A DNA stretch of 52,448 bases. It comes from a virus. Taxonomy: Duplodnaviria; Caudoviricetes. Every line of letters starts with the position of its first letter. Position 1 is the stretch's first letter. The notes below the pieces were generated by a model that was not told the DNA's origin, searched no databases, and worked only from the letters and a program-made list of their open reading frames with translations. Shown here piece after piece: positions 11,898 to 52,448 of the stretch. Location of the stretch: IMG/VR virus record IMGVR_UViG_3300036852_000332, positions 1-52,448 of that record; one strand, 5' to 3'. The position numbers and the translations under genes are program-made.

Positions 11898-13736
11898 GTG
11901 CCGGCTATCTCATCCCAGTCGATGCGGGCGCTGTACCCGTTCCGTGACACCCACCACAAGAAGACCGTCCGCCTCCTGGCCCGGACGCGGCTGCTGGTCC
12001 AGCCGCCCGCGCTCGCCCCCGGCGCGCAGGTCACCTTCGACGCCGTCGGCCCCTCGTCGGCGGGGCAAGGCCAGACCGGCACCACGACGCCGATCACCTG
12101 GTCGCACACCTGCACCGGCACCAACCTGGTCCTGCTGGTCGGTGTGGTCGTCGCCGGGACCGACACCGGCGTCACCACCACGGTCACCTACAACGGCGTC
12201 GCGTGCACGTCGATCGCCAAGCGGCACTCCAACGACGGCACCGCCGGCTACGCCGAGCTGTTCTACCTCATCGCCCCCGCGACCGGCGCCAACACCGTCT
12301 CGGTGGCCGTCGCCGGGGGCGGCTGGGAGGGCTTCGAGGGCGGCTCCATCAGCCTGGCCGGCGCCGACCAGGCCAACCCGATCGCGCACTCCGCCACCGC
12401 GGTCGGGACCGCCACCCCCGCCAGCGTCGCGGTCACCAGCGCGGCCGGGAACATGGTCGTGGACCTGGTCTGCTGCGGTAGCGCGGTCGCCGCGTCGAAC
12501 CAGACGTCGCGGTGGCTGCTCAACCGCTCGGCCGCCAGCGCCGCCGGGAACGCCGCGCAGGCGACCGCCGACGGCGCCGCGTCGGTGACGATGACCCGGA
12601 CGGTCACGTCGGACTGGTGGGCGGCGATCGCCGCCGACGTCGCCGTCGCGAGCGGCGCCCCCGCCACGAACGCCAACGCCGAGGCGGCCACCGCGCAGCC
12701 GTGGACTGCCGCCGACGCCCTCGCCGAGGTCGACCCGGCAGTCGGCGCCGCTTCGGTCCCGGTCACCGCGGCTGACGCCGGGGCCTCGGTCGATGCGAAT
12801 GCCGGGGCCGCAGTGGTCGGCTTCGCCGCCGCCGACGCGAGCGCTGCGCTCGACGTCCCGGCGGGCACGGCCACCGTCCCGGCCACCGCCGCCGACGCGA
12901 CCGCGAGCCTCGAGGCGGCCGCCGGCACCGCCACCGTGCCGTTCACTGCGGCGGACGCGACCGTCTCGACCGTTACCGGCACCAACGCCGACGCCGGTCC
13001 CGCCTCGCTGGGCTTCACGGCCGCCGACGCCTCGGTCGCACTCACCGTCGACGCCGGCACCGCGACCGTCCCAGCCACGGCAGCGGACGCGCAAGCCTCG
13101 GTCGGTCCGGCGGCTGGTACCGCGAACGTGCCGCTGGCCGCCGCCGACGCCGCTGTTGCCCTGGACGTGCCGGCCGGCACCGCAGCGGCCCCGTTCACGG
13201 CGGCGGACGCCACGGTTTCAACGGTCGCGCAGACCAACGCCGACGCCGGCCCCGCCGCAGTCGCAATTGCAGCTGCGGATGCCCTGGCGTCGATCGCCCC
13301 GGCCGCTGGCACGGCTACGGTCCCGTTCACGGCCGCCGACGCGGTCGCGACCAACTCGGTCAATGTCGATGCGGGCGCGGCCACGATCAGCATCACCGCT
13401 GCGGATGCGGCTGCCGTCGTCGCCGTCAATGCCGAGGCGGCCAGCGTCCCGGTCACGGCCGCCGCGCCCGGCTGGGGCATCACCGCCGGCTCGCCAGCCG
13501 TTGTGCTTGCGGCCGCGGATGCCGTGGCGAGCCTCGGCGCCCTGGCCGGTGGTGCGGTGGTCGCCTTCGTCGCAGCCGACGCGGTGGTCTACATCCCGCC
13601 GCCGGTGCCGCCGCCCCACTGGGTCGAGGGCGCGGCCGGCGCCAGCGGTGTGGCTGACGGTGCCGGCGGCGGCACCGGCACCGCGGAATTGGTCGGTGCC
13701 GGGACCGGGATCGCTGAAGGGCAGGGAGGCGTATGA
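11898..13736 (+). CDS. repeat-containing fibre-like protein
   Basis: N-terminal beta domain followed by about 14 repeats of 20-24 aa ending in (T/A/V)AADA. Confidence 0.7.
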   Translation: MPAISSQSMRALYPFRDTHHKKTVRLLARTRLLVQPPALAPGAQVTFDAVGPSSAGQGQTGTTTPITWSHTCTGTNLVLLVGVVVAGTDTGVTTTVTYNGVACTSIAKRHSNDGTAGYAELFYLIAPATGANTVSVAVAGGGWEGFEGGSISLAGADQANPIAHSATAVGTATPASVAVTSAAGNMVVDLVCCGSAVAASNQTSRWLLNRSAASAAGNAAQATADGAASVTMTRTVTSDWWAAIAADVAVASGAPATNANAEAATAQPWTAADALAEVDPAVGAASVPVTAADAGASVDANAGAAVVGFAAADASAALDVPAGTATVPATAADATASLEAAAGTATVPFTAADATVSTVTGTNADAGPASLGFTAADASVALTVDAGTATVPATAADAQASVGPAAGTANVPLAAADAAVALDVPAGTAAAPFTAADATVSTVAQTNADAGPAAVAIAAADALASIAPAAGTATVPFTAADAVATNSVNVDAGAATISITAADAAAVVAVNAEAASVPVTAAAPGWGITAGSPAVVLAAADAVASLGALAGGAVVAFVAADAVVYIPPPVPPPHWVEGAAGASGVADGAGGGTGTAELVGAGTGIAEGQGGV

Positions 13737-14053
13737 GACCGGTCCTGCTGCGCGCCGAACAGCACTGGACATGCCCCAACTGTCCCGCGACCACCGTGAC
13801 GCACCTGCCGCCGGGGACGGCCGCGTCGCAGATGCACACCTGTCCCGGCCTGCGGGGCCTGACCGCCCCCATGATCCCGGCCGGTCAAGACTGCAAGGTC
13901 GAAGCCGTCGAGTGGGGCGACTACCTGCACGGCGAACTCGCCCAGCGCGACGCAGAAGGCCGGCCCATGTCCGCGGTCGTGACGACCAGGGCGGACGGAT
14001 CGAACGACACGGCGGTGCTCGCGCCGAGCGCCCGATGGAACCTGGAGGACTGA
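13733..14053 (+). CDS. Zn-ribbon-like hypothetical protein
   Basis: WTCPNC...HTCPG; translationally coupled on both sides. Confidence 0.7.
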   Translation: MRPVLLRAEQHWTCPNCPATTVTHLPPGTAASQMHTCPGLRGLTAPMIPAGQDCKVEAVEWGDYLHGELAQRDAEGRPMSAVVTTRADGSNDTAVLAPSARWNLED

Positions 14054-14295
14054 TGGCAGAGCCGAACCCGCTGGCCGGGCTGACCGCCGAGGAGGCCGAC
14101 GCCGCGATCGACCGCCTCGCCGCCAAGGCCGAGGAGGCCGAGGCCCACGCCAAGGCCGTCCGCGCGCACCTCAAGGCCATGAAGGCCGCCCGCCGCGACC
14201 TGGTCGAGCCGGTCCCGCTCGAGCGGCGCGGTGCCAGCTCGACCGACGCGCAGGCCGAGCCCGCGCAGATCACCACGGAGGCGAGCGGGGGATGA
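14053..14295 (+). CDS. small coiled-coil protein
   Basis: GGAGG RBS, TGATG coupling, 80 aa. Confidence 0.7.
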   Translation: MAEPNPLAGLTAEEADAAIDRLAAKAEEAEAHAKAVRAHLKAMKAARRDLVEPVPLERRGASSTDAQAEPAQITTEASGG

Positions 14296-14798: not shown

Positions 14799-15701
14799 AT
14801 GGCTGACCTGCTGCGGATCCTCGTGCGAAGCGGCGCCAAGCCCTACGTGATCTTCGCGACCGAGAACGGCCCGAACGACCTCGACACCGGCGTCCCGGTC
14901 GTGGTCGCGACCCGCCCCGACGGCACCACCCTCTCGCCGGCGCTGGTCGCCAGCCACGCAGGCGCCACCAATAGCGGGAAGTACGAGGTCACCTACCCGC
15001 CGCAGACGGAGCTGACCCGCACCCGTCTGGACTGGACCGGCACCATCGGCGGCGTCACGGAGACCCTCACCACCTGGGTCGACGTCGTCGGCGGCCACCT
15101 GTTCACCGTCGCCGACGCCCGCGCGTTCAAGGTCGCCGGCACCGCCGTCCTCGCCGATGTGGTGAAGTACCCCGCAGGCGACGTGATCGCCGCCCGGGAC
15201 GAGATCACCGACGACTTCACCGCACGTGGCGGGGTCGCGTTCGCGCCCCGGCACGCCCGCGAAACCCTCAACGGCGACGGCACCAGCCGGCTGATCCCCG
15301 CCGAGATGCTGCCCCACCGCGTCATCAGCGTGACCGTGAACGGGGTCGCGTTCACCGCGGGCGAGCTCGCCGACATCGGGTTCGCCCCCGGCGGGATCCT
15401 GGTCCGCACGGCCGGCGGCACCTTCCCGTCTGGCACCATGAACATCGACGTCGAGTACGCCCACGGCTACGCCCCGACCCCCCCCGCGATCCGCCGGGCG
15501 GCGCTGCACCGCCTGGCGATGCTGCTCAACCCCTCCTCGGCGGCGTCATCGGCGGTCACGTCCTGGACCAGCCCCGACGGCACGTCCTACTCCTACGACC
15601 GCGTCGGGCAGTCCCGCGGCGGGATGACCTACCACTACGGCATCGGCGTGATCGACGGGCCCTTGAACTTCTACGGCATGGCCGGCATGGCGATCGCCTG
15701 A
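14799..15701 (+). CDS. head-tail adaptor with N-terminal Ig-like extension
   Basis: C-terminal V.YAHGY...P..IRRAAL motif; N-terminal G.Y.V.Y...W beta domain. Confidence 0.7.
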   Translation: MADLLRILVRSGAKPYVIFATENGPNDLDTGVPVVVATRPDGTTLSPALVASHAGATNSGKYEVTYPPQTELTRTRLDWTGTIGGVTETLTTWVDVVGGHLFTVADARAFKVAGTAVLADVVKYPAGDVIAARDEITDDFTARGGVAFAPRHARETLNGDGTSRLIPAEMLPHRVISVTVNGVAFTAGELADIGFAPGGILVRTAGGTFPSGTMNIDVEYAHGYAPTPPAIRRAALHRLAMLLNPSSAASSAVTSWTSPDGTSYSYDRVGQSRGGMTYHYGIGVIDGPLNFYGMAGMAIA

Positions 15702-16165
15702 TGGCCTCGGCGTCCAACCGTGCCGCGAAACGCGGCATCCGCCAGTACCTGGCGACCACCGGAGGCCTCGGCGCCGCCGACGGCGTCACCATCCGCTCCG
15801 CCATGGTCGACCCTGAGGAGTTCACCGGCGACCTGGTCATCCTCGGCGACGTGGTCGCCCCCCAGGCCCAGGCCGGCCTCGCCACCCGCGCGAAGACCCC
15901 GACCGTCACGTGCTGGGTGATCGTGACCCGCCCCGGCGCCGACGAGGACGCCATCGACGCCGCCGGCGACCGCGCCGAGCAGCTCATGGCCCTGGTCGAG
16001 GCCGCCCTTGACGCCGACCGCTCGGCCGCCGGGTCCGTGCTGCCACCCGGCCAGGTCGTCGTCGCCACGTCGGGGCTCGAGGAGTCACCGGTCGAGATCG
16101 ATGGCTCGGCGGCGAGGCGGGCGACCATCGGATTCCAGCTCTCCTGGACCAGCCACATCACGTAA
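15701..16165 (+). CDS. tail terminator / completion protein
   Basis: Size, synteny and RA..L...VE.AL..D pattern. Confidence 0.6.
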   Translation: MASASNRAAKRGIRQYLATTGGLGAADGVTIRSAMVDPEEFTGDLVILGDVVAPQAQAGLATRAKTPTVTCWVIVTRPGADEDAIDAAGDRAEQLMALVEAALDADRSAAGSVLPPGQVVVATSGLEESPVEIDGSAARRATIGFQLSWTSHIT

Positions 16166-16182
16166 TTGTCCGCCTGACCTGC

Positions 16183-16268
16183 GATAATAGACGTAAGTGG
16201 CCCCCGCGCTGCGCAAACAGCCGGGGGCCGTGGCCGACACGAACGGAGCGTGCCGAGCATGGCCGAGC
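16183..16268 (+). promoter_or_regulatory. HNH-gene leader, copy 1 (-10 GATAAT plus two hairpins)
   Basis: GGCCCCCG/CGGGGGCC stem, then 38 nt identical to 31032-31069. Confidence 0.75.
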
Positions 16269-16771
16269 CTACCTACTCACCATCCGCCCTGCCGCCCAAG
16301 CTGACGGCCAAGATCAGCCTTGATGAGGCCGGCTGCTGGCTGTGGACCGGGGTCATCACCGACCAGGGCTACGGACGGCGGATCTGGCCACCCACCGGTG
16401 CCAGCCACGGCAGAACATGGTTCGCGCACCGGCTGGTCTACACGCTGCTGGTCGGCCCGATCCCCGAAGGGCTCGTGCTCGACCACCTCTGCAACGTGCG
16501 GCGCTGCGTCAACCCCGCGCACCTTGAGGCCGTCACGCTTGCGGAGAACAGTCGTCGCGCCTACTCGGCTGGCAGGCCGAACACGAACGGGAAGTGCCGG
16601 AGCGGTCGCCACCCATGGGTACCGATCAACATCTACACCGACCCGAAGACAGGCCACCAGCGCTGCAACGAATGCCAGTTGGAGAAGTCGCGAGAGCAAC
16701 GGGCAAGGCTGACGGCGGCAGGCTTGCGCCGGAAGGCCCGGCCAGGTCCAGGGCAGGCATCGCTGCTTTGA
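16250..16771 (+). CDS. free-standing HNH homing endonuclease
   Basis: CWLWTG, AHRLVY, LDHLCNVRRCVNPAHLEAVT..EN and a C-terminal Zn finger. Confidence 0.92.
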   Translation: MPSMAEPTYSPSALPPKLTAKISLDEAGCWLWTGVITDQGYGRRIWPPTGASHGRTWFAHRLVYTLLVGPIPEGLVLDHLCNVRRCVNPAHLEAVTLAENSRRAYSAGRPNTNGKCRSGRHPWVPINIYTDPKTGHQRCNECQLEKSREQRARLTAAGLRRKARPGPGQASLL

Positions 16772-16860
16772 GTAAGTAAGCCCAGCACTGCCAGAGGGCA
16801 CCCATCGCCTGGGTGTCCTCTGGCATGCCCTGCGTGTCGTCCACCTAGAAGGAGGCCGCC

Positions 16861-17211
16861 TTGGCGACCTACGTGGCCACTACCGTGCCGCTCAACGGGC
16901 TCGTGCTGAGCACGCTGCTCGCCGCCGCCGCGACGCCCGCCTCGGGCGACCTCGCCCCCACCGGCACGGGGGTGAAGCTGGTCGTCCAGAACACCGGCGG
17001 CGGCGCCTGCGTCGTCACGATCCCCACGCCGGGCACGTTCGAGGGCGACCTGAGCCCGCTGCCGTCGCGGGTGTCGGTCTCGATCCCGGCCACGACCGGC
17101 CTGGCCGAGATTCCATTGACAGATGCGCATAGGGACCCGACCACCGGGCTGGCGACGATCAACTACTCCACGGTGACCGGCGTCAAGGCGATCGTGACAA
17201 GGAACCCGTGA
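16861..17211 (+). CDS. hypothetical structural protein
   Basis: AAGGAGG RBS with TTG start; beta-rich. Confidence 0.7.
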   Translation: MATYVATTVPLNGLVLSTLLAAAATPASGDLAPTGTGVKLVVQNTGGGACVVTIPTPGTFEGDLSPLPSRVSVSIPATTGLAEIPLTDAHRDPTTGLATINYSTVTGVKAIVTRNP

Positions 17212-17648
17212 TGGGCGTGCGACTGCGGCACCCGACCCTGCCGGCGGACCAGGTGATCGAGGTCGACCCGATCGCGGTCCCCCACCACCAGGCCGCCGGC
17301 TGGCAGGTCGAAGAGGGCCAGGACGAGACCGGCGAGGTCTGGCCGGCGGAGCTGCAACGCTTCGAGGGCCAGGAGCAGGTCCGCCTGCGCCACCCGGAGC
17401 TCGACGCCGAGATCACCGTCGCGCGCAGCGCGGTTCCGGTGCACCAGTCCACCGGCTGGTACCAGGTCGAGGAAGACGTGCCGCTGCCCGACGACCTCGG
17501 CGACCTGACCGTCGATGACCTGCGGGACCTGCTCCGCGCCCGGGACCTGCCGGTGTCGGGGACCAAGGCGGAGCTGGTCTCCCGGCTGCGTGCCGCACCA
17601 GCGGAAGAGGAGCCGGCCACCCCGGCCGACCAGGAAAGCGAGGAGTAG
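17208..17648 (+). CDS. SAP-domain protein with an internal duplication
   Basis: LTVDDLRDLLRARDLPVSGTKAELVSRL is a SAP motif; two copies of VRLRHP.L...I.V...AVP.HQ..GW.VEE. Confidence 0.8.
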   Translation: MMGVRLRHPTLPADQVIEVDPIAVPHHQAAGWQVEEGQDETGEVWPAELQRFEGQEQVRLRHPELDAEITVARSAVPVHQSTGWYQVEEDVPLPDDLGDLTVDDLRDLLRARDLPVSGTKAELVSRLRAAPAEEEPATPADQESEE

Positions 17649-18131
17649 ATGGCCGCTCCCAACATCACCGCCAGCACCCGCTACGCGCGGTTCGGCGTCA
17701 CCCGCGTCGTGTACGCCCCGGCCTGCGCCAACATCGCCTCGCCGACCCGGGCCGAGATAAATGCGGGTACAGACCTTTCGAACGAAGTGTCTGAAATCAG
17801 TGGATTCCAAGTTACGAGCAACTTTATCGATACGCCTGACTTGGGAACTTCGTTCACCGCCAAGGTTGCGGGGCGGACCTCGGCGGATGACTCATCGATC
17901 ACGATGTACGCTTCGGTCAACTCGGTCGACGTTCGCACTCTTCTCCCAAGGGGCACAACGGGCTTTCTGATGTGGTTCGATGAGGGAGATGTCGCAGGCC
18001 GCCGCTTCGACATATACCCCATTACGGTCGGATCGGTCCCCAAGGACAGAAGTATCGAAGAGGCCAGCCGAATGAGCGTAAATGTCGCTATCACCAGGAC
18101 GCCCGCTGAGAATGTGGTCGTACCGGCCTAA
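17649..18131 (+). CDS. major tail protein
   Basis: PTRAEINAGTDLS and GRTSADDSSIT pattern of actinophage tail tube proteins; synteny. Confidence 0.85.
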   Translation: MAAPNITASTRYARFGVTRVVYAPACANIASPTRAEINAGTDLSNEVSEISGFQVTSNFIDTPDLGTSFTAKVAGRTSADDSSITMYASVNSVDVRTLLPRGTTGFLMWFDEGDVAGRRFDIYPITVGSVPKDRSIEEASRMSVNVAITRTPAENVVVPA

Positions 18132-18162
18132 CGAGACAACCAAGACAGTCGCACGTCCGCGA

Positions 18163-18246
18163 TAGAATGACGCAGTAAGCGGCCCCGGCGGTGGTAAGAC
18201 CCCGGGGCCTGGCCAGCACCTATAGCGAAGGCCGGTGCCGACAATG
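18163..18246 (+). promoter_or_regulatory. HNH-gene leader, copy 2 (-10 TAGAAT plus two hairpins)
   Basis: GGCCCCGG/CCGGGGCC stem, then TGGCCAGCACC...GGTGC. Confidence 0.7.
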
Positions 18247-19029
18247 CCCAAGGGTATCCCTGGATCAGGGTCGCCGTGTTCAGCGCCTGACTGCGACCAG
18301 CTCGTCGGACCGAAGGGCGCGCGCGGGCTCTGTCCCGCGCACTATGGGAGCTGGCGCAGGCACGGCACGCCTCCGGCGAAACCAGCTCGCACCACGCTCT
18401 CCACCTGCACCGTCGTCCTGCCGTCCGGGGAGACATGCCCGCACCCGCATCAGGGCAACGGGTACTGCCGTGTGCACAACTGGCGGTTCAAGCGCTACGG
18501 CGACCCGCGGGCGGACAAGCCCATCCGTGGGTGGCATCCACTTGCGGCCGAGTGCACCGTCCCCGGCTGCCCTGAGACCCCGAAGGCTCTTGACCTCTGC
18601 CCGGCGCACTGGGACCGCTGGTACCGGACGGGCGATCCCGGCCCGGCCGAGATCTTCAAGCCCCGCGAGGGATGCGACGTTTCAGGGTGCCCGGATCCGC
18701 ACGTGGGCCTGGGGTTCTGCAAGTCGCACCTGCGCAAGTTCCACCTGTACGGCGATCCAACTCATGCGGAGCATCCGGGCAGGTGGGCCGGCGATGACGT
18801 CGGCTACGACGGCGTGCACAAGCGACTCCGCGCACTCCATGGGGAAGCTGCCGCGCATCCTTGCCGACGGTGCGACAAGCCAGCCAAGCACTGGGCCTAC
18901 GACCACGCCGACCCGGACGAGCGGCAGGACCCCAGACGCGGGCCGTACAGCATCGATCCGGCCCACTACCTGCCGCTGTGTGTTTCCTGCCACAAGACAT
19001 TTGATCTGAAATGGCGGGCGACCTCGTGA
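18235..19029 (+). CDS. HNH-like endonuclease with four tandem Cys/His Zn-finger repeats
   Basis: Four C....C...(L/Y/F)C..H units, then Y...H..L, CRRC, WAYDH and LCVSCH..FD. Confidence 0.8.
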   Translation: MPTMPKGIPGSGSPCSAPDCDQLVGPKGARGLCPAHYGSWRRHGTPPAKPARTTLSTCTVVLPSGETCPHPHQGNGYCRVHNWRFKRYGDPRADKPIRGWHPLAAECTVPGCPETPKALDLCPAHWDRWYRTGDPGPAEIFKPREGCDVSGCPDPHVGLGFCKSHLRKFHLYGDPTHAEHPGRWAGDDVGYDGVHKRLRALHGEAAAHPCRRCDKPAKHWAYDHADPDERQDPRRGPYSIDPAHYLPLCVSCHKTFDLKWRATS

Positions 19030-19502
19030 GGATCGACTGGACCGATGGCCGGTTCGTCGACCCGGCCCAGCTCGACGCGTTCCATGCGCAGACGCTGCCG
19101 GTCGACCCGCCGTGCGGCAGCCACGACGGCAAGGTTGTTGCGGTCGGCTGGCGGGTGGCGTGGATCGATGAGGACCTTGCCGAGCTGGTCTGGCGCGCGT
19201 GGCGTCTCGGTGTCGTGACCGAGGAGAGCTGCCAGGACGCCCTCGACGATGGCACGCAAGCGCTGCTGGGCTTCGGCGATCCCGACCAGCTTCGGCAGTT
19301 CCTTGAGCTGGCTGTTCCGTTGTCCGACGTGCCCGGTGGCCTGTTCGACCGGGCGACGGGCTGCAACCTTGACCCGGACGCTGACGGGATGTGGGAGTAC
19401 TCGCTGTTCCCGCACCTTGGCGGCCGTGGCTGCGAGCTGTCAGTGTCAGTGCTGTTCCCGCGTTCGGACATCGCGGCGCTGGTCGCGAGTCTCCGCCGCT
19501 GA
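19011..19502 (+). CDS. hypothetical protein
   Basis: Fills the gap after the HNH gene; ID..LA.LV...W..G..T..SCQ pattern. Confidence 0.65.
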   Translation: MAGDLVRIDWTDGRFVDPAQLDAFHAQTLPVDPPCGSHDGKVVAVGWRVAWIDEDLAELVWRAWRLGVVTEESCQDALDDGTQALLGFGDPDQLRQFLELAVPLSDVPGGLFDRATGCNLDPDADGMWEYSLFPHLGGRGCELSVSVLFPRSDIAALVASLRR

Positions 19503-20738: not shown

Positions 20739-23700
20739 GTGGCACTCAACGCCGGTGACGCCTACCTCTCCGTGCATCCGCAGCTCGCCGCCGACGCCGG
20801 CCGGCAGCTCGCCCGGCAGGTCCAAAACCCGGCGGCACGGGCCGGCCAGGAAGCGTCCCACCACTTCGGCCGCTCCTTCGCCAAGGGCATCGGCACCGCC
20901 GGCAAGGCCATCGGGATCGGGATCGCCGCGGGGTTGGGCCTGGCCGTCGCCGCCGCGGTCAAGCTGGTCCCGGTTCTGCGCCAGTCGGTGCAGGGCTGGC
21001 GTGACCACCTCAAGGTCGTCGCGCAGACCACCCAGACCTTGAAGACGATGGGCGGCGCCGCCCACGTCACCGTCGGTCACGTCGCCGCCCTCGCCGACGC
21101 GCTGGAACGCAAGACCGCCATCGACAACGACGTCATCCAGTCCGGCGCGAACCTGCTGCTGACGTTCGCCAACATCCGCAACGAGGTCGGCAAGGGCAAC
21201 GACGTCTTCGACCGGGCGACCAAGGCCGCGGTCGACATGTCGGTGGTGTTCAAGCAAGACATGAAGTCCAGCTCGATCCAGCTCGGCAAGGCCCTCGACA
21301 ACCCGATCAAGGGGCTCACGGCGCTGTCCCGGATCGGCGTGAGCTTCAGCGCCGCCGAGGCCAAGCAGATCAAGAGCCTGGTCGCCCACAACAAGACCCT
21401 GGAAGCGCAGAAGATCATCCTGGCCGCGGTCGAGCGGCAGACCACCGGGTCGGCGGCGGCGTCGGTCACCGCGTCGGACCGCATGGCGATGGGCTGGCGG
21501 AACCTCAAGGACACCATCGGCAAGCTCCTGCTCCCCGTCGTCGACCGGTTCGAGAACCTGCTGGGCGCCCAGCTCCTCCCCGACCTCCAAGCCCTGGCTG
21601 TCAAGCACGGCCCCGCCGTCCAGCGGGTCCTGATCGGCGTCGCCAAGCAGCTCAAGGTCGCCTTGCAGACCTTCGAGGTCCTCGGCGCCAGCGCCGGGGT
21701 CAAGGCGTTGTTCCCGCCGTCGTTCGCCGCCAACGTCGACCAAGTCCTCGCCGGCCTCGCAAAGGTCGGGCCGAGGATCAAGCAGCTGTGGCAGGAGGCG
21801 ACCAGGACCGGCCCGGCGCTGTCGGCCGCCGGCGGCGGCAGCCACGTCTTCGCCAACTCCTTGGCGATCATCGGCCCGGTCCTGGACGTCGTCGCCCGCA
21901 ACGTCCACAACGTCCTGCCGTGGCTGCCGGCCCTGGTCGCCGGGTTCCTGGCGTTCCGGGCGGTCCGCACCGTCATCGGCCCGCTGGGCGACCTCGGGAC
22001 CGCGATCCGGAACTTCGCGACCCCGGCGCTGGTCGTGGCGACGTTCGCGCAGGCGCGGGCGCAGCGGGCCCTCGCCGCGGCGATGCTGGAGACGGCCGGT
22101 GCGGCGGTGGCGTCGTCCGCCGCGCAGGCCGAGGCGAACGTCGTCGGCCAGGCGGGGCTGCTGCTCGCGGTCCGCCAGCGCGCCGCGCTGCTCGCGACCG
22201 CTGCCGCGCAGCGGGTCACCGCCCTCGCGGCGGCGACGAGCCTGGCCCAGTTCGGCCTGTTCGGCGCCGCGCTCGCCGTCGTCGCCGGCCTCGCGCTCAA
22301 GATGAACTCCGAGCTGCACAAGGCCGCCGCCGCCAGCGAGCAGACCGGCCGGGCGATGACGATCGGCGGGAAGGGCGGCCAGTTCTTCGCCGACCGGCTG
22401 GGCCAGCTCGACACAGCGCAGCAGGCCGCCGCGCGGGCGACCCGGGATGCCGCCGCGGCGTCGGCGTTGCACGCCGGGAAGCTGCGGGACGAGCAGACCG
22501 CGGTCGACGCGCTGCGCGACGCCCTGGCCGGTGAGGAAGGCGCCGAGCTGGACGTCCGGCAGGCCAAGATCAACGTCTCGACGGCGCAGCAGCGCCTGAC
22601 CGAGCTGGTCAAGGGTGGCCGCAAGGGCAGCCTGGACTACAAGCAGGCCCAGATCGACCTGAAGCGCGCCCAGATCGAACTGCGGGAACGGACCGCGGCG
22701 TACCGGGAGGCGCAGCTCAAGGCGAACGCGGCGATGACCGGGGCGATGCTGGCCACCCAGCGCGCCACCCCGCCGACCAACAGCCTGACCGAGGCCGCGC
22801 GCCGCTCCGGCGCGCGGCTGGGCATCATGGGCGACCGCGCCCGGGACGCCGGCACCAAGACCGGCGAGTTCGGCCGTGCCGTCGCCGGCTTGAAGGGCAA
22901 GGGCATCGCGATCAAGGCGACCGCGAGCCTGACCGGGTTCGGCGCGCTCGGCGGCCCGGTGCTGGTCGCCGCCGCCCACGGCCGCGCCGGCGGCGGCCCC
23001 ATCGTCGACGGCGTTCGGTCGCGGGACTCGACGCTGGTGATGGTCCGCAAGGACGAGCACGTCTGGACGCCCGAAGAGGTCGATGCGGTCGGCGGCCACG
23101 GCGCGATGTACCGCATGCGCGCCGACGCCCTCGCCGGCGGGTTCCGCGGCTACGCTGCCGGCGGTGCCGTCGACCCGACATTCTCCGCCACCGGGCTGGA
23201 GGCGGCGACCCGGGGCGTCCGCGCGATCCCCGGGGTGGTCGAGCGGATCGTGACCCGCGCGTCGCTGGCGATCGTCCGCAAGGCCGTCAAGGCGCTCGAG
23301 GCCGGCTTCGGCGGCGTCGGCGGCAAGGCGGGGATCAAGGCGTTCATCCTGGCGACCGACCGGTTGCCGTACCGGTGGGGCGCCGCCGGCCCCGGCGCGT
23401 ATGACTGCTCCGGCCTGGTCGGCGCGGTGTACGGCAAGATGCGCGGCGACCCGGCCGCCGGCCGTGGCCGCCGCTACTTCACCACCGCCTCGATCTCGAC
23501 CGGCGTGCCGGGGATCCGCTCCGGGTTCGGCGGCCTGCTCAACATCGGCGTCACGTCCGGCAGCGGGCACATGGCCGGGAACTACGGCGGCCTCGGTTTC
23601 GAGGCACGATCGACCAGAACGGGGATCTTCACCGGCCGTGCGGCCCGGTCGCCGGCGTCGTTCGCCCGCCACTTCCACATGGCCCGCGGCGGCGCGGTCG

Positions 23701-24023
23701 AGTGGGCCGAGCTGCTCGCCCGGCTCCCAGGCTTGGACGTCGCTGGTGACGCCGGCGCGCTGAACGTCGTCCAGGGCCGGTTCCGCGGCTACGACGCTGG
23801 CGGGTGGCTGCCGCCTGGGCTGTCGCTGGCCTACAACGGCACCGGCCGGCCGGAGCCGGTCGGGCCGGCCGCCCGGACGATCAACGTGACGGTGCCGCTG
23901 ACGGTCTACGGGGAGATCACCCCGGCGCAGCGGGCGCAGATGCACGCGATCGCCGAGGAGATGGGGGAGACCGTGGCGGCGGAGCTGTCCGACGCGCTCG
24001 CCCGCCGCGGCTCAGGCGTCTAG
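20739..24023 (+). CDS. tape measure protein with NlpC/P60-like peptidase motif
   Basis: 1094 aa, Ala-rich and helical; QLGKALDNP.KG motif; PYRWGAAGPGAYDCSGLV. Confidence 0.93.
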   Translation: MALNAGDAYLSVHPQLAADAGRQLARQVQNPAARAGQEASHHFGRSFAKGIGTAGKAIGIGIAAGLGLAVAAAVKLVPVLRQSVQGWRDHLKVVAQTTQTLKTMGGAAHVTVGHVAALADALERKTAIDNDVIQSGANLLLTFANIRNEVGKGNDVFDRATKAAVDMSVVFKQDMKSSSIQLGKALDNPIKGLTALSRIGVSFSAAEAKQIKSLVAHNKTLEAQKIILAAVERQTTGSAAASVTASDRMAMGWRNLKDTIGKLLLPVVDRFENLLGAQLLPDLQALAVKHGPAVQRVLIGVAKQLKVALQTFEVLGASAGVKALFPPSFAANVDQVLAGLAKVGPRIKQLWQEATRTGPALSAAGGGSHVFANSLAIIGPVLDVVARNVHNVLPWLPALVAGFLAFRAVRTVIGPLGDLGTAIRNFATPALVVATFAQARAQRALAAAMLETAGAAVASSAAQAEANVVGQAGLLLAVRQRAALLATAAAQRVTALAAATSLAQFGLFGAALAVVAGLALKMNSELHKAAAASEQTGRAMTIGGKGGQFFADRLGQLDTAQQAAARATRDAAAASALHAGKLRDEQTAVDALRDALAGEEGAELDVRQAKINVSTAQQRLTELVKGGRKGSLDYKQAQIDLKRAQIELRERTAAYREAQLKANAAMTGAMLATQRATPPTNSLTEAARRSGARLGIMGDRARDAGTKTGEFGRAVAGLKGKGIAIKATASLTGFGALGGPVLVAAAHGRAGGGPIVDGVRSRDSTLVMVRKDEHVWTPEEVDAVGGHGAMYRMRADALAGGFRGYAAGGAVDPTFSATGLEAATRGVRAIPGVVERIVTRASLAIVRKAVKALEAGFGGVGGKAGIKAFILATDRLPYRWGAAGPGAYDCSGLVGAVYGKMRGDPAAGRGRRYFTTASISTGVPGIRSGFGGLLNIGVTSGSGHMAGNYGGLGFEARSTRTGIFTGRAARSPASFARHFHMARGGAVEWAELLARLPGLDVAGDAGALNVVQGRFRGYDAGGWLPPGLSLAYNGTGRPEPVGPAARTINVTVPLTVYGEITPAQRAQMHAIAEEMGETVAAELSDALARRGSGV

Positions 24024-30982: not shown

Positions 30983-31069
30983 TAGAATAACCCTAAAGAG
31001 CGGCCCCGGCGTGTAGTGAGCACCCGGGGCCTGGCCGACACGAACGGAGCGTGCCGAGCATGGCCGAGC
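30983..31069 (+). promoter_or_regulatory. HNH-gene leader, copy 3 (-10 TAGAAT plus two hairpins)
   Basis: GGCCCCGG/CCGGGGCC stem; 38 nt identical to 16231-16268. Confidence 0.75.
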
Positions 31070-31656
31070 GTACCTGTTCGATCCCTGGTTGCGACAGAAC
31101 CGTCATCGCGCGTGATCGCTGCAGTACCCACTACTGGCACTGGTGGAAAGTCAACCGCGACATCGCGGCGATGCCCTCGGTAGAAGAGCGATTCTGGTCG
31201 AAGGTCCGCAAGACCGAGACGTGCTGGCTGTGGATGGCCACCAGGAACAACCAGGGCTACGGCGAGTTCTGGGTCGCCGCCGCAGGCAAGAAGGTTCTGG
31301 CCCACCGGTTCGCCTACGAGCTGCTGGTCGGGTCGATTCCCGAGGGCTTGACGCTTGATCACGTCCGGGCGAACGGCTGCACATCGCATGCTTGTGTGAA
31401 GGCCATCGCCGATGAGCATGGCCTACCGCATCTGGAGCCAGTCACCGAGCGGGAGAACATCCTACGCAGCGACAGCTTCAGCGCGCGGAACGCTCGTAAG
31501 ACGCATTGCCCGGCTGGTCATCCCTACGATGAAGTCAACACCTATGTCAGCCGACAGGGCGGTCGCAACTGCCGGACTTGCCACCGGCAGCAGGAACGGG
31601 ATCGCAGGCACCGCCGGATCGAGGACGAGCTGTTCAAGCTGAAGGGCAGGCCGTGA
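31051..31656 (+). CDS. free-standing HNH homing endonuclease
   Basis: ERFWSKV, CWLW, AHRFAY, LDH, HLEPVT.REN and KTHCPAGH...CRTC. Confidence 0.92.
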   Translation: MPSMAERTCSIPGCDRTVIARDRCSTHYWHWWKVNRDIAAMPSVEERFWSKVRKTETCWLWMATRNNQGYGEFWVAAAGKKVLAHRFAYELLVGSIPEGLTLDHVRANGCTSHACVKAIADEHGLPHLEPVTERENILRSDSFSARNARKTHCPAGHPYDEVNTYVSRQGGRNCRTCHRQQERDRRHRRIEDELFKLKGRP

Positions 31657-39141: not shown

Positions 39142-39377
39142 CCGGCATCCAGGACTCTGGCGGGAGCAGCTTCCGCGTTCCGTCCGCCTACGGGCGGTGC
39201 CGCCGTCCGCGCTGCTACCAGCCACCCGTCGCGGACATGTGGCGAGGCCACGGTGCGCCCGATTCTGACGAGCGCGGCAGCTGGTACGCCTACCGCACCG
39301 AGCACTTGCGCGACTACCGCCGTGAGGTCCGCGACGGGCGCATCCGGTTCCTGCCTCGCCGTGAGGCCGCGTCGTGA
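39138..39377 (+). CDS. hypothetical protein
   Basis: ATGA coupling; C....C..P..A...R...WYAY pattern. Confidence 0.55.
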   Translation: MTGIQDSGGSSFRVPSAYGRCRRPRCYQPPVADMWRGHGAPDSDERGSWYAYRTEHLRDYRREVRDGRIRFLPRREAAS

Positions 39378-39571
39378 CCGCCGCCGCGCACCTCGCCTCC
39401 TTCGAGGCCGCCGGGGACGCCGCCGTCCACGCCCACCTCATGTTCAGCCACCGCGAGCGGCTACGGCAGCTCGGCCTGGACGGTCCCACGCTGGCCGGCC
39501 AGTCGGCCGCGCTGCTGCACCGCCGCGTCCACGACGACGAATGCTACTTCCCCACGGAGGCCCCAGCATGA
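39374..39571 (+). CDS. hypothetical His-rich protein
   Basis: Coupled on both sides. Confidence 0.6.
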   Translation: MTAAAHLASFEAAGDAAVHAHLMFSHRERLRQLGLDGPTLAGQSAALLHRRVHDDECYFPTEAPA

Positions 39572-40083
39572 CCACCCTGGAAAGCCCGATCGTCGGCCTC
39601 ATCCCGGTCCGTGGCGGCGCCTACTCCGTCGATCCTGTCCGGGGACTCGTCTACGGCCCACGCGGCGTCCCGATCGGCAACCCCGATGGCTCCGGTCATA
39701 TCCAAGTCGACGGCCGCTCTCGTCAGCTCGGCCAGCCATTCGCCCACCACCTCATCTGGGAAGCCGTCCACGGCCCGGTTCCTGATGGCTTGGAGATCAA
39801 CCATCGCAACGGCATCAAGGCCGATAACCGCATCGCCAACCTCGAGGTGGTGACGCGGCAGCAGAACGTTCTGCACGCCTATGCGACCGGCCTGAAGTCC
39901 AACGCGGGCGAGAAGCACCCGAGCCACCGGCTCACCGAGGCCCAGGTCCGCGAGATCCGCCGCCGCGCGGATGGTGGCGAGCCGCACAAGCTGCTGGCCG
40001 CCGAGTACGGCATCAGCCGCCGCCAGGTCAACGACGTGGCTGGCCGCCGCGCCTGGGCACATGTCACAGAGGAGTCGGCATGA
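39568..40083 (+). CDS. HNH homing endonuclease with C-terminal HTH
   Basis: HHLIWEA.HG, INH.NG.K.DN.I.NLE.VT...N..H; LTE.QV.EIR...LA.EYGIS. Confidence 0.9.
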   Translation: MTTLESPIVGLIPVRGGAYSVDPVRGLVYGPRGVPIGNPDGSGHIQVDGRSRQLGQPFAHHLIWEAVHGPVPDGLEINHRNGIKADNRIANLEVVTRQQNVLHAYATGLKSNAGEKHPSHRLTEAQVREIRRRADGGEPHKLLAAEYGISRRQVNDVAGRRAWAHVTEESA

Positions 40084-41973: not shown

Positions 41974-43932
41974 GTGACGCAGGGCAGGCAGCGATTCTCT
42001 GAGCCAGAGCGAGATCGGCTCTGGGATCTATGGAGTGGTCGCTGTGCCGAATGCGGCAAGCCGCTTGAGGCTGGATGGCACGTCGATCACGAGGTGCCGC
42101 GAGTTGCTGGCGGGCCGACTGCCCTCGGCAACGGCCGGCCGGTCTGCCCGGAGCACAACCTGAAGAAGGGAGCACGAATGGAGTTGCGGCGTGCACAACA
42201 GCAGCTCGTTGAGAAGGTGCTGGACAACGTCGCGCGCCGCAAGACGGTCACGGTCGCGCTGCTGGCGCCCGGTGCGGGCAAGACCCTGGGCTGGGAGGCA
42301 GCGGCCAACGAACTGTACCGGCCGCCGAGGGGTCAGGTCCGGACGGTGGTCGCGCTCGCGCCGCGGCTCAACCTCTGTTCCCAGGCTGAGCTGGAATGGG
42401 CACAGCGCCACTCGGGCTTCCCGAAGCCACGGATGGGCAGCATCGCCCACGCGCCGAACCGCCGACCGCTCCTGAAGCCGGACGAGTGGGGCTACACGAC
42501 GACCTACTCCTCGTTGGTGTCGAAGCCCTGGATGCATGTGGATTTCGCGCAGGAGCACCTCGACCAGTTCCTGCTCGTCCTGGACGAGGCGCAGATCCTT
42601 GGCATGGATGAGGAGCAGGGGACGCAGGCCGCGAAGTACGTTCAGCAGATCCAACCGCTCGCCTTCCACACGATCCTGCTGACTGCCACCCCCGAGCGTG
42701 CTGATGGCCAGCCGCTCCTGTTCGCCTCCTACGGGGAGAAGGACGCCCACGGCTACCGGAAGTTGCTGGCTGACGTGGTCTCGGGCTACCGCGAGGGCAT
42801 CACCGAACGCTACCTGCGGCCGTACCAGGGGGACCTGACCGACGCCACGATGCGTCACCGCTGGGTGGGCGCGGCAGCGGCAGAGGAATGGCGGCTCTCG
42901 GAGAATTCTGACGAGCTGTACAAGTTCATCCGCCAGCCGGAAGTGTGGCAGCCCCTTGTCGACCAGACGGTCGAACGCATCCGCAGGATCAAGCTGCTCG
43001 ATCCGCGGTACTGCGGGCTGATCGCCGCCGCGTACCAGGACGATATCCCTGACATCCAGGCGTACGTGGCGCAGCACCATCCCGACATGAAGGTGCTCGT
43101 GGCACGGTCCGCCGACCCCGGCAAAGAGGGGCTACGGAACCTTGCCCAATTTCGGCAGGGCGGTCATGACCTGCTCATCACCGTCCGAATGGCCTACATC
43201 GGCTATGACCATCCGCCGATCACCGCCATCTGCGTCCTGACCAACTTCCGGGACAAGGGGCACCTATACCAGCTTGTTGGCAGGGGCATGCGCGTGTGGA
43301 GGGAACGGCCGGCCTCCGAGCAGCACCTCTACGTGATCGCCCCGCAGGACAGGAAGATGCAGGACTTCCTCGTCGAGCTGCGGGCAGAGACCGAGGCTGG
43401 CCTGCGCGAGCGAGCCCACCGAGAAGGCGGTGATCCGCCTGGCCCGCCACGGCTGGGGCAGGTTGAGGAGACCCACATCGGGGACACCGCCACGATCGGT
43501 TTGGAGCCGGACGGCGACCTGGAGCCGGCGGAGCGGACCTGGCTGCGTGAGCAGATGGAACGGCACCACCTCGTGATGGCTCCCGAGTCAGGCGTCGCCA
43601 GCCTCTTGCGGGCGGCAGGTGGGCTCATCCTCGGAAGGTCCGCAGCCCCACCGGCCGAGCCCGTGGTTGCGGCCCCCGTGGCGACCAAGACGCGGGAAGA
43701 GCAGCGCCGGGAGAAGGGCGTTGCATGCAGGACGGCAATTGCTCGCTATCTCGCACAGCATGAGGGTCTCACCTCGCAGGGAACGCCGGTGCAGTTCCGG
43801 GACCGCGTTCGGTACCTAAACAACTGGCTCAATGGCGAACAGCGAGTGCCGAACGTCGAGCACCTCAGCCTTGAACAGTGGGACGAGCGTCTGCGGATCA
43901 TCCAGTCGTGGCCGAGCGGCGGCGCGCCATGA
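41974..43932 (+). CDS. HNH nuclease - SF2 (DExD/H) helicase fusion
   Basis: CAECG..WHVDH..P...GG.T...N....C..HN.KKG; PGAGKT, LDEAQ, TAT and QLVGRGMR. Confidence 0.88.
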   Translation: MTQGRQRFSEPERDRLWDLWSGRCAECGKPLEAGWHVDHEVPRVAGGPTALGNGRPVCPEHNLKKGARMELRRAQQQLVEKVLDNVARRKTVTVALLAPGAGKTLGWEAAANELYRPPRGQVRTVVALAPRLNLCSQAELEWAQRHSGFPKPRMGSIAHAPNRRPLLKPDEWGYTTTYSSLVSKPWMHVDFAQEHLDQFLLVLDEAQILGMDEEQGTQAAKYVQQIQPLAFHTILLTATPERADGQPLLFASYGEKDAHGYRKLLADVVSGYREGITERYLRPYQGDLTDATMRHRWVGAAAAEEWRLSENSDELYKFIRQPEVWQPLVDQTVERIRRIKLLDPRYCGLIAAAYQDDIPDIQAYVAQHHPDMKVLVARSADPGKEGLRNLAQFRQGGHDLLITVRMAYIGYDHPPITAICVLTNFRDKGHLYQLVGRGMRVWRERPASEQHLYVIAPQDRKMQDFLVELRAETEAGLRERAHREGGDPPGPPRLGQVEETHIGDTATIGLEPDGDLEPAERTWLREQMERHHLVMAPESGVASLLRAAGGLILGRSAAPPAEPVVAAPVATKTREEQRREKGVACRTAIARYLAQHEGLTSQGTPVQFRDRVRYLNNWLNGEQRVPNVEHLSLEQWDERLRIIQSWPSGGAP

Positions 43933-51098: not shown

Positions 51099-51533
51099 AT
51101 GCGCGAAGTCGCCGTCTGGTTCCTGCTCGCCTGCCTTTCGGCCGGCCTGTTCAAGTTCGTCCTGATCCCCTGGGCGATCGGTCGGCTGCCGACCGACCGC
51201 TACCACGAACACCTCCGCTCACCCGAGTGGGCCGCCACCGTTGCTCGGCTTGGCGCCACCCGGCGTGGCCGCCGCTGCGCCGCCTGCTTAGGTACGCTCG
51301 ACTTGAACGTCCATCACGTATTTTACGTGAATCTCGGATTCGAGAGACTTTGGCAATTGGTCCGGTTATGCGACCGGCATCACCGGATGGTGCATACGGC
51401 CTCCGAGTGGGTCTTCTCAAGCAAGACGCGGGGCCTTTGGCTCACGACCCCATCCGTCATCGTCTGCACACGCCTCACGCACCTTGGCCGGCGTCAACCC
51501 CGCCGTTCCCTCGACGCGCGCTGGCGCGCGTAG
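51099..51533 (+). CDS. HNH nuclease with N-terminal TM anchor
   Basis: VAVWFLLACLSAGLFKFVLIPWAI, then Y..HL.S.EW, CAAC, L.VHH..Y...G.E....L..LC.RHH...H. Confidence 0.75.
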   Translation: MREVAVWFLLACLSAGLFKFVLIPWAIGRLPTDRYHEHLRSPEWAATVARLGATRRGRRCAACLGTLDLNVHHVFYVNLGFERLWQLVRLCDRHHRMVHTASEWVFSSKTRGLWLTTPSVIVCTRLTHLGRRQPRRSLDARWRA

Positions 51534-52063
51534 TAGCAGGTCTTGCAGTAGCGCGTCGGCGTCTTCCGCCACTTGTCGGCGGGAAAGATTCCGTCAAGCG
51601 GGTGGCCGTGCTGGCAACGTTCCCGACGTGCTATGGCTCGGGCGACGTTCACGGCGAGGGACACCGCGTCCAGGTGCGCCGGGTTGCAGCAACGGCGGTG
51701 CAGGCACGTCTTACCGCCACGGCACGCCTTATCGCGGTTGTGGCAGGTGTGGTCGACGGTAAGGCCCTCGGGGATTGGGCCGTTGGTCAGCTCCCAGACC
51801 TTGCGGTGCGCGAGGATGATCTGCTTCGGCCTGGACATCGCGCCGTAGCCGTCCGGGGTGAGACCTCCGAGCCAAGGCCAACACTCGTCCGGCCCCCGTT
51901 GGTCGACCTTGATCCAGACGCGCTGCTCGGGCGTGATATCCACCGGCTGGATACCGGTGTAGCCGTACCGCTTCCAGCGGTGGTAATCCAGCTCGCACAA
52001 GCCCCGGGCGTAGTGCTTACACTCGCAACCCGGATGGGAACAGCGGCGGGTAACCTTCGCCAT
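51494..52063 (-). CDS. free-standing HNH homing endonuclease
   Basis: Zn finger, CWPWLG, AHR.VWE, VDH.C, RRCCNPAHL..V...N and C..GH. Confidence 0.9.
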   Translation of the reverse strand: MAKVTRRCSHPGCECKHYARGLCELDYHRWKRYGYTGIQPVDITPEQRVWIKVDQRGPDECWPWLGGLTPDGYGAMSRPKQIILAHRKVWELTNGPIPEGLTVDHTCHNRDKACRGGKTCLHRRCCNPAHLDAVSLAVNVARAIARRERCQHGHPLDGIFPADKWRKTPTRYCKTCYYARQRASRERRG

Positions 52064-52140
52064 GTCGACGCCTCCACAGGGTGTCGGCCACGGCCCCGGA
52101 CGTTCACGCGTCGCGGGGCCACTCTCATGCTCATTTTCCC
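52061..52140 (-). promoter_or_regulatory. HNH-gene leader, copy 4
   Basis: GAAAAT; GGCCCCG/CGGGGCC stem; TGGCCGACAC...GGAGGCGTCGACATG. Confidence 0.7.
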
Positions 52141-52148
52141 ACAAGAAC

Positions 52149-52237
52149 GGAAGGTGCACCCCGGCCGCCGCCCTACCGCGCGCCAGCGTCGCAAGCTAGC
52201 TGGCGCGCGTCCAGTTGGCGGCCGGGGTGCACCTTCC
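52149..52237. repeat. long inverted repeat (21-bp outer and 11-bp inner perfect arms)
   Basis: 52149-52169 pairs with 52217-52237; 52177-52187 pairs with 52199-52209. Confidence 0.9.
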
Positions 52238-52448
52238 TCGGCCCCGGCGACGAAACGGCGCCCTAGGTCCGACCGCGCGTCCGCCGGCCGGGGCCGGCCC
52301 CTACCTTCCTGGGCCCCGGCGGCGACCAGGCGCCTGGGAGCGGCCCCGTGACCGGCCAGCCCCGCGGACAGCGGCACGACCTGGTCCGCCAGCACACCGT
52401 CCCGGTCACCGTCGAGCTGCACCCCGACGAGATGGACTGCACCGAACT

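Follow-up and report, generated by a model that had tools for sequence, protein, structure and literature searches.

We report a structured cis-element that precedes four HNH endonuclease genes in a 52,448-bp viral record (hereafter the window, meaning this stretch of DNA at its full length) and that recurs in other phages and in bacterial genomes. A -10 box pointing backward out of codons 3-5 of the downstream gene, an asymmetry of wobble pairs between the two strands and the better fold of the antisense strand together lead to the proposal that the element is an antisense RNA gene: convergent promoters are predicted to give rise to a two-hairpin countertranscript of ~70 nt, lying over the ribosome-binding site and the start codon. 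We put the probability of this reading, which is drawn from sequence comparisons, at roughly 60%. Directly observed in the collected copies are how sequence and structure are conserved, how the two strands differ, where the -10 box lies and which genes accompany the element.

Four copies of the element in the window

The window is a whole IMG/VR entry (IMGVR_UViG_3300036852_000332), linear and of ~79% completeness according to CheckV. It is of high GC content and looks like an actinophage; its large terminase shows 35-42% identity to those of Streptomyces, Gordonia, Rhodococcus and Microbacterium phages. Searches for cultured phages near-identical to positions 15500-19500 and for tRNA or tmRNA genes in the window found none. 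The pattern GGCCCC-N8-26-GGGGCC-(N)-TGGCC has exactly four matches in the window, namely the four copies, whereas the reversed control pattern has none, and a tighter version gives two matches against 0.01 expected. A covariance model, R1, scores the copies at 83.3, 60.9, 39.8 and 32.3 bits, with the next match in the window at 17.5 bits. Pattern and model both recover exactly four sites, in agreement with the shared promoter-and-hairpin layout at four HNH genes described in an earlier note on this DNA.

Copy 1 opens with a sense -10-like hexamer, GATAAT, read directly at 16183..16188 (+) and preceded by TGc. It is followed by hairpin 1 (16199..16229 (+)), with an 8-bp outer stem, a bulged C, a 4-bp inner stem and a 6-nt loop, and by TGGCC and hairpin 2 (16231..16254 (+)), in which 16236-41 pair with 16249-54 and the Shine-Dalgarno GGAG occupies the loop; HNH gene 1 (HNH_3; phrog_826) occupies 16259..16771 (+). 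Copy 2 has TAGAAT at 18163..18168 (+) and its structured part at 18181..18239 (+), comprising hairpin 1 (18181-18209), TGGCC (18210-14) and hairpin 2 (18215-20 with 18234-39), ahead of HNH gene 2 at 18244..19029 (+), a member of another family (phrog_5351/1271, with a weak DUF5763 match). For copy 3 the hexamer is TAGAAT, again preceded by TGc, at 30983..30988 (+), and the span 31002..31055 (+) holds hairpin 1 (31002-31031), TGGCC (31032-36) and hairpin 2 (31037-42 with 31050-55), with HNH gene 3 (phrog_826) at 31060..31656 (+). Copy 4, on the opposite strand, has GAAAAT preceded by TGg at 52133..52138 (-), the structured span 52067..52120 (-) with hairpin 1 (52120-52092), TGGCC (52090-86) and hairpin 2 (52085-80 with 52072-67), and HNH gene 4 (HNH_3; phrog_826) at 51494..52063 (-). 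The start codons after the motif thus lie at 16259, 18244, 31060 and 52063(-), and the hexamer precedes the GC hairpin by ~10-12 nt in all four. The hexamer positions previously given for the first three copies (16183, 18163 and 30983) stand, while that of copy 4 is 52138-33 rather than 52140.

Each of the four downstream ORFs matches an HNH-endonuclease PHROG. They had been called dissimilar; three of them are in fact phrog_826 paralogues, 39-41% identical, the one at 18244 alone being of a different HNH family. The reported run of 38 identical nucleotides between copies 1 and 3 is confirmed (50 nt at 94%). HNH genes 1-3 lie within the late region: gene 1 after a head-tail adaptor-like gene and an unnamed ORF, gene 2 directly 3' of the major tail protein gene and gene 3 directly before the endolysin gene; gene 4 is encoded on the opposite strand at the right end. 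The element is absent from the two other HNH-domain genes of the window. One of these (39253-40083) is a fifth HNH_3 gene with the top HNH_3 score of the window, and the other (41974-43932) has its HNH domain fused to a helicase-like protein; both are within tightly packed operons.

Several further features of the window were noted in passing. About 11 imperfect 60-nt (20-codon) direct repeats, rich in GCC and GAC, span 12640-13480 in a long plus-strand ORF (11898-13736 / 12793-14295 frames), which probably encodes an Ala/Asp-rich repeat protein of the head region. Just upstream of copy 4 there is a long GC-rich inverted repeat at about 52160-52245 (feature span 52155-52334) together with a 43-nt direct repeat (52220-52262 / 52292-52334, 77%); these may be a bidirectional terminator or another regulatory site. 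In the tape-measure protein (20739-24023), residues 727-1042 also match an endolysin PHROG, which suggests a lytic domain embedded in it.

Hairpin anatomy and covariation

In its family-wide form, hairpin 1 has a 7-8 bp outer stem (GGCCCCG(G)), a bulged C, a 3-4 bp inner stem and a loop of 5-7 nt. The conserved bulge and the covarying inner stem had escaped the earlier note; the letters of the inner stem vary between copies while its pairing is kept. Hairpin 1 is followed by (N)TGGCC, and hairpin 2 is formed by the 6 nt after TGGCC, which pair with positions -9 to -4 so that the Shine-Dalgarno sequence is mostly in the loop; GAC stands directly before the ATG or GTG start. The second imperfect stem that had been described as spanning the ribosome-binding site and the start region is thus present, but it extends over the spacer and onto the 3' edge of the Shine-Dalgarno sequence and leaves the start codon outside. 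Across the family, the nucleotides flanking the 7-bp form of hairpin 1 covary as U...G or C...A, which are mutual complements on opposite strands, while in the 8-bp form the extra unpaired base before TGGCC is dropped and the spacing is kept constant.

Covariation was assessed in the 33 copies of identical hairpin geometry from which R1 was built. Among these aligned copies 85.7% of the cells are paired, against 70.4% in shuffled alignments and 32-50% with slid partners; changes on both sides are found in 11 of the 17 pairs, and the covariation score is 0.337 versus 0.091, a value reached by none of 500 shuffles. Since the seeds of R1 were chosen by inner-stem pairing, the statistics of the inner stem are biased, while those of hairpin 2 and of the outer pairs are unselected. 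All six pairs of hairpin 2 covary, and the same pairs top the mutual-information ranking. The strict conservation of the outer stem and the bulge is partly by construction as far as the stem sequence goes, the copies having been collected by patterns in which the hairpin was fixed; it is nevertheless more than a mere terminator accounts for, and may reflect a protein partner or a dual use of both strands.

A -10 box facing backward from codons 3-5

In 78 copies anchored on the start codon, and irrespective of which protein family follows, conservation continues into the coding sequence: C at -1 (95%), A at +8 (90%), T at +12 (86%), A at +13 (83%) and C at +15 (78%), with no conserved base past +15. 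Read on the opposite strand, the conserved bases of codons 3-5 spell GnTAnnnT, which we take, from mycobacterial and Streptomyces promoter studies, to be the extended -10 box typical of actinobacteria. A conserved purine stands eight nucleotides downstream of the box, and an A six nucleotides downstream; the antisense start point would be ambiguous, either the A six or the G eight nucleotides after it.

The box stands at the exact place in 63 of the 78 copies, versus 0-1 at 17 other in-frame offsets. Within ±1 nt of this place it is found in 129 of 154 copies, whereas control windows have a mean of 0.5 and a maximum of 3; the remaining 25 copies are devoid of it. A set of 121 matches to the hairpin-only pattern, which is independent of the model, has the box 35-70 nt downstream in 77 of 119 cases, whereas five control windows give 0-16. 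In copies with a start codon shifted by 1-6 nt, the distance between GnTAnnnT and the hairpins is unchanged. All four window copies carry this consensus match in the 5' end of the ORF, where countertranscript control would place an opposite-strand promoter. The predicted antisense promoter of copy 1 is GgTAGGCT at 16266..16273 (-), in codons 3-5, as read from the sequence and supported by the family statistics. By the same family statistics, those of copies 2-4 are GaTACCCT at 18251..18258 (-), GgTACGCT at 31067..31074 (-) and GgTAACCT at 52049..52056 (+).

On the sense side, TANNNT occurs 14-24 nt 5' of hairpin 1 in 33 of the 78 copies, against 1-2 in control windows; this sense -10 box is less conserved than the antisense box and variable in placement. 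A rule-based scan of 15900-18500 on both strands, which demanded a -35 box for sigma-70-type promoters and at least 5 T in 8 nt for terminators, returned neither.

Strand asymmetry of the structure

When read on the sense strand, the helix of hairpin 2 has only 65% of its cells paired and contains many A·C mismatches: in 73 copies 70 cells are A·C and 6 are G·U. At the outermost pair of hairpin 1 the same 73 copies show 30 A·C and no G·U on the sense strand. As a sense A·C mismatch is a G·U pair in the antisense, the stems point to an antisense RNA.

Folding leads in the same direction. The antisense strand has the better fold in 123 of 128 copies (49 of 51 viral and 74 of 77 bacterial), with a mean gain of 5.4 kcal/mol. 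Composition-controlled z-scores for window copies 1-4 are -4.0, -2.5, -2.9 and -5.2 on the antisense strand, against -1.9, -1.2, -2.05 and -2.5 on the sense strand; for copy 3 the fold energy is the same on both strands (-32.8 versus -32.7 kcal/mol). All four antisense sequences of the window form the same two clean hairpins, whereas RNAfold of the four sense sequences gave no consistent second hairpin. Both wobble counts and fold energies are thus those expected of a structure selected on an antisense transcript, as countertranscript control would demand. The predicted antisense RNAs, with ends that are themselves inferred, would span 16190..16260 (-) for copy 1 (~70 nt, two clean hairpins, -39.2 kcal/mol), 18172..18245 (-) for copy 2 (-42.5 kcal/mol), 30993..31061 (-) for copy 3 (-35.5 kcal/mol) and 52062..52130 (+) for copy 4 (hairpins of 10 and 12 bp, -39.6 kcal/mol). 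The base of the antisense 5' hairpin is built, via a G·U pair, from TGGCC and from the GAC that precedes the start codon, which explains the conservation of both blocks.

Both flanks of the GC hairpin bear on where transcription might end. The 9 nt 5' of hairpin 1 contain 3.7-3.9 A on the sense strand, against 1.8-1.9 in a control stretch, and the antisense GC hairpin is therefore followed by a U-enriched tail. In the window copies this tail has only 3-4 U in 9 nt, and termination after the antisense hairpin is accordingly doubtful there. A U-tract after the sense hairpin, as in PeSL-type or intrinsic terminators, was looked for and (N)UGGCC(G/A)AC was found in its place.

Phyletic spread and novelty of the family

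Two pattern scans of viral contigs returned 40 and 82 loci; ~45 of the 83 matches to the wider viral pattern are terminator-like or coding look-alikes and were placed outside the family. The 23 phage records holding a copy have between one and five each, and among cultured Arthrobacter phages Pitbull has three copies, Richie two and Isolde one. Together with the covariation, which is real, this copy number bears out the notion of a portable, structured cis-element advanced in the earlier note.

Bacterial genomes gave at least 120 matches to the hairpin-only pattern, and the full model scores at least 37 bits in 76 of the first 100 bacterial loci among the matches listed. Streptomyces is the host in 39 of the 60 titled model-positive bacterial loci among the matches listed, with a further 11 from Solirubrobacterales, Conexibacter, Gaiellaceae or Thermoleophilia, 7 from other Actinomycetota and 3 from MAGs labelled otherwise; the bacterial pattern fixed the inner stem as GACG, so these taxon counts are not a census. 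After removal of identical sequences and of 21 weak or partial matches, 154 non-identical copies were kept, 62 from phages or viral records and 92 from bacteria, mostly Streptomyces (the bacterial ones being from among the matches listed). In PLSDB there is one true match, 5' of an HNH gene on a Rhodococcus rhodochrous plasmid, and one chance match. A looser genome pattern was discarded, its matches being no better than those of the reversed control.

The earlier note had suspected an undescribed motif and proposed a comparison with Rfam, and the outcome agrees with this: Rfam 15 (4227 models), run over the whole window at the gathering threshold, gave no match. At E<=1, the four window loci gave one irrelevant miRNA match, and 20 copy-bearing loci gave two unrelated sub-threshold matches, both away from the motif. 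Literature searches found no published description of the motif. The Gordonia phage Vardy has a 50-bp motif consisting of TATAAT and a leaderless start (PMC9671010); going by the description in the available part of that source, we judge it to be a different element. On inspection, a tRNA-like minihelix or RNase P substrate was rejected on account of the missing T-loop and CCA, a riboswitch on account of the unconserved loops, and an integron attC site and an IS200/IS605-type single-stranded DNA hairpin were likewise dismissed. The mechanism proposed below is of a known kind, while the family, its portability among unrelated genes and the design with a promoter within codons appear to be undescribed.

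A shorter hairpin, CCCCGC-loop-GCGGGG, followed by the same CCTGGCCGACAC block and by the ribosome-binding site and ATG, was seen in seven viral records of ~60 kb (L005, L007, L019, L022, L038, L042 and L044), and a longer-stem version of it in L020 and L025. Possibly this hairpin represents a relative of the cassette or a degenerate version of it.

Genes downstream of the element

In the window a nuclease gene follows all four copies. The first-round viral set comprised 39 model-positive loci outside the window, of which 34 show, at the aligned start, a reading frame of 40 aa or more; 30 of these were searched against Pfam, the other four, of 40-66 aa, being left out. Nuclease domains were detected in 15 of the 30 (5 HNH_3, 6 HNH/HNH_5, 3 Endonuclease_7 and 1 T5orf172/MUG113), and a further 16 viral ORFs behind copies not in that tally added 9 HNH_3, giving a nuclease in 24 of 46 viral ORFs outside the window. 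Other viral ORFs include an integrase, an MT-A70 methylase, an SLT domain, a weak AAA/clamp-loader match and an HTH protein, and 17 of the 46 have no family. In the cultured phages, annotated HNH endonucleases follow the motif at Pitbull gene 27, Isolde gene 80 and Richie gene 96, and hypothetical genes at Pitbull genes 31 and 65 and Richie gene 47; Pitbull 31 and Richie 47 are each the first of an operon.

The deposited starts of Isolde gene 80 (locus L128, 46237) and of Richie gene 96 (L321/L290, 52435) lie inside the motif, within its spacer or hairpins, and the in-frame starts aligned with the motif are 27 and 45 nt further downstream, respectively. Both deposited starts appear to be misplaced on account of the motif and are probably too early.

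The 63 bacterial ORFs tested are all truncated to at most 124 aa by the 400-nt flanks, so that C-terminal domains are missed; they comprise five DUF772 transposases (IS5-type), two integrase N-terminal domains, one HNH_3, three weak or spurious matches and 52 ORFs without a family. Many of the latter are Streptomyces ORFs of 75-125 aa annotated as hypothetical. NCBIfam gave no name to 14 downstream bacterial ORFs, and exact look-up of nine small ORFs found five, all labelled 'hypothetical protein'. Among four Streptomyces neighbourhoods, the motif is divergent from an HTH_31+DUF5753 regulator in two and from a GntR regulator in one, and in the fourth it is within a low-GC3 island. The Streptomyces chromosomes of loci L286 and L287 combine the motif and an ORF of 75-125 aa, divergent from HTH_31+DUF5753 (WhiJ-like) genes; the small ORF has an N-terminus like M-x-x-x-I-R...LLLP-x-G-R-H-R, occurs in several copies per genome (about 2-6) and matches no Pfam or NCBIfam model.

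The element is thus enriched before nucleases in phages and is not specific to HNH genes. A tally of downstream genes, as the earlier note had proposed, upholds nuclease enrichment in phages but not specificity for HNH genes; likewise, its claim that the element travels with nucleases holds for the phage set (24 of 46 ORFs), while other gene types also follow the element.

Mechanistic interpretation and alternative explanations

The features described above suggest a cassette of ~95 bp in which two promoters would face each other across the 5' end of a gene; transcription from either promoter, the ends of the RNA, its termination and the repression are predicted from these features. The sense promoter, with a -10 box only and located 10-12 nt before hairpin 1, would start the HNH mRNA, while the better conserved GnTAnnnT in codons 3-5 would, opposite the start codon, initiate a countertranscript of ~65-75 nt that would extend backward across the start codon, the Shine-Dalgarno sequence and the entire leader. 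The 5' hairpin of this RNA would present an anti-Shine-Dalgarno sequence in or near its loop, whereas its GC-rich 3' hairpin (GGCCCCG..., with a bulged G) and moderately U-rich tail could act as terminator and 3' stabiliser. Pairing of the countertranscript with the leader, probably loop to loop at first, would block ribosome binding, and the resulting duplex might also become a substrate of RNase III. A nuclease, transposase or integrase could in this way be kept low irrespective of whether it is translated from an mRNA of its own promoter or from a read-through transcript of the late operon; for HNH genes within a heavily transcribed late operon, nuclease synthesis would be capped whatever the source of the mRNA. 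A function of the hairpins in the sense mRNA may coexist with the antisense RNA, since the sense -10 box is also enriched.

The main alternative is that the element acts in the sense mRNA leader only: the 5' hairpin would protect against 5'-end-dependent RNases and hairpin 2 would partly occlude the ribosome-binding site, throttling translation, while the conserved bases of codons 3-5 would serve initiation or a binding protein. This agrees with suitably spaced sense -10 boxes in all four window copies and their enrichment in the family (33/78 versus 1-2), with the location of hairpin 1 at 2-6 nt from the predicted 5' end, with the covariation of hairpin 2 and with the conserved stretch from the Shine-Dalgarno sequence to +15, which corresponds to the known size of the 30S footprint. 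However, the sense strand has 100 A·C cells against 6 G·U, its folds are weaker with poorer z-scores and an inconsistent second hairpin in RNAfold, the Shine-Dalgarno core is mostly in a loop with the start codon outside the helix, and the -10 box on the other strand within the ORF, with its purine eight nucleotides downstream, would be left unexplained. We therefore regard a leader acting in the sense mRNA alone as unlikely, and the ribosome-binding-site-sequestering sense hairpin that the earlier note had favoured becomes the weaker reading in light of the A·C mismatches, the better antisense fold and the backward -10 box.

A transcription-level device, in which the backward promoter gives rise to a longer transcript running leftward and hairpin 1 serves either as an attenuator or as an insulating stop for both directions, would suit the weak U-tail of the window copies; at some Streptomyces loci the transcript would then be the leader of a divergent regulator gene, and an HTH_31+DUF5753 gene is indeed divergent ~150 nt upstream in two of the four Streptomyces neighbourhoods, with a GntR gene in a third. 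Yet the genes upstream of window copies 1-3, Pitbull gene 27 and Isolde gene 80 are co-directional, so that at window copies 1-3 there is no leftward target, and we consider such a device improbable. Very improbable, in turn, is an element acting at the DNA level, be it a protein-binding palindrome (operator) or a recombination or homing junction kept by recent shared ancestry. The nearly invariant sequence of the outer stem, the 38 nt shared by copies 1 and 3 and the multiple copies in phage records, reminiscent of T4-type PeSL cassettes as described in the available part of PMC2839356, could be so understood, but the interior of the palindrome varies and stays self-complementary through compensatory changes, a strand-asymmetric wobble is meaningless for double-stranded DNA, and the insertion sites differ among copies.

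An even chance attaches, in our estimate, to a broader proposal: that these copies represent a very widespread, unannotated, Hfq-independent family of ~70-nt cis-antisense RNAs, forming a portable 'governor' cassette exchanged among selfish and accessory genes of Actinomycetota and their phages, and representing the first case of a general antisense control of homing-endonuclease genes in phages to be described. Such a cassette would consist of two facing -10-only promoters and two hairpins, its promoter within codons 3-5 constraining the N-terminus of the fused protein, and would be used by homing endonucleases, IS transposases, integrases and the small Streptomyces ORFs that adjoin WhiJ-like regulators. 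HNH genes of the free-standing kind rank among the most common accessory genes in actinobacteriophages, and to our knowledge how the expression of phage HNH genes stays harmless is understood only in T4-type phages. If the countertranscript reading is right, one small cassette could explain the control of nuclease, transposase and integrase genes in Streptomyces, in bacteria of the Thermoleophilia class and in phages of Arthrobacter and related actinobacteria. Annotation would gain a new RNA family, Streptomyces engineering a compact and portable repression module, and the study of antisense regulation a testable case in Actinomycetota, the phylum of the hosts here, which as far as we know is without Hfq and ProQ. 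The repeated cassettes are moreover candidate recombination points for the swapping of accessory genes.

Comparison with known systems

A precedent for the proposed arrangement is offered by the antisense control of the IS10/Tn10 transposase by the RNA-IN / RNA-OUT pair. In the RNA-OUT system, as in the proposed cassette, convergent promoters flank the 5' part of a selfish gene, with the antisense one located in the first codons of the ORF; a stable stem-loop RNA of ~70 nt lies over the ribosome-binding site and start codon, and a DNA-cutting enzyme is restrained. In contrast to RNA-OUT, with which there is no homology (nor was any Rfam family matched, RNA-OUT included if it is curated there), the element described here has two hairpins, a fixed GC stem and a bulge, is attached to unrelated gene families and resides in Actinomycetota, which are not known to possess Hfq. 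Plasmid ctRNAs and the antisense RNAs of type I toxin-antitoxin systems, such as Sok, are further cis-antisense RNAs which, like the proposed RNA, are short, constitutive and highly structured, with a terminator hairpin and a likely loop-loop initiation. Unlike for ctRNAs, the targets here would be phage nuclease, integrase and transposase genes and small ORFs rather than rep; the Rfam search gave one unrelated sub-threshold ctRNA match, elsewhere in the Richie locus L129.

The known 'HNH-associated RNA', HEARO or the IscB omega-RNA, is also a structured RNA adjoining HNH-domain genes, but it serves a different class of nuclease as a large guide RNA, and it had no Rfam match here. Homing-endonuclease genes of T4, such as I-TevI and mobE, are restrained by hairpins that sequester the ribosome-binding site. 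The likeness lies in the post-transcriptional restraint of free-standing homing-endonuclease genes inside phage operons; whereas in T4 the hairpin is intramolecular and relieved by a late promoter, the sense hairpin here is weak, with A·C mismatches, and an intermolecular antisense RNA is what the evidence suggests. The promoter-early stem-loops (PeSL), mobile regulatory cassettes of T4-type phages, are comparable, going by the available part of PMC2839356, as small, repeated promoter-plus-stem-loop cassettes next to accessory genes, in multiple copies and plausible as recombination handles. As characterised in that part of the source (PMC2839356), the PeSL stem-loops are sense terminators, whereas the sense hairpin of the present element is without a U-tail and lies 3' of the sense promoter inside the leader, and a second, predicted promoter points backward.
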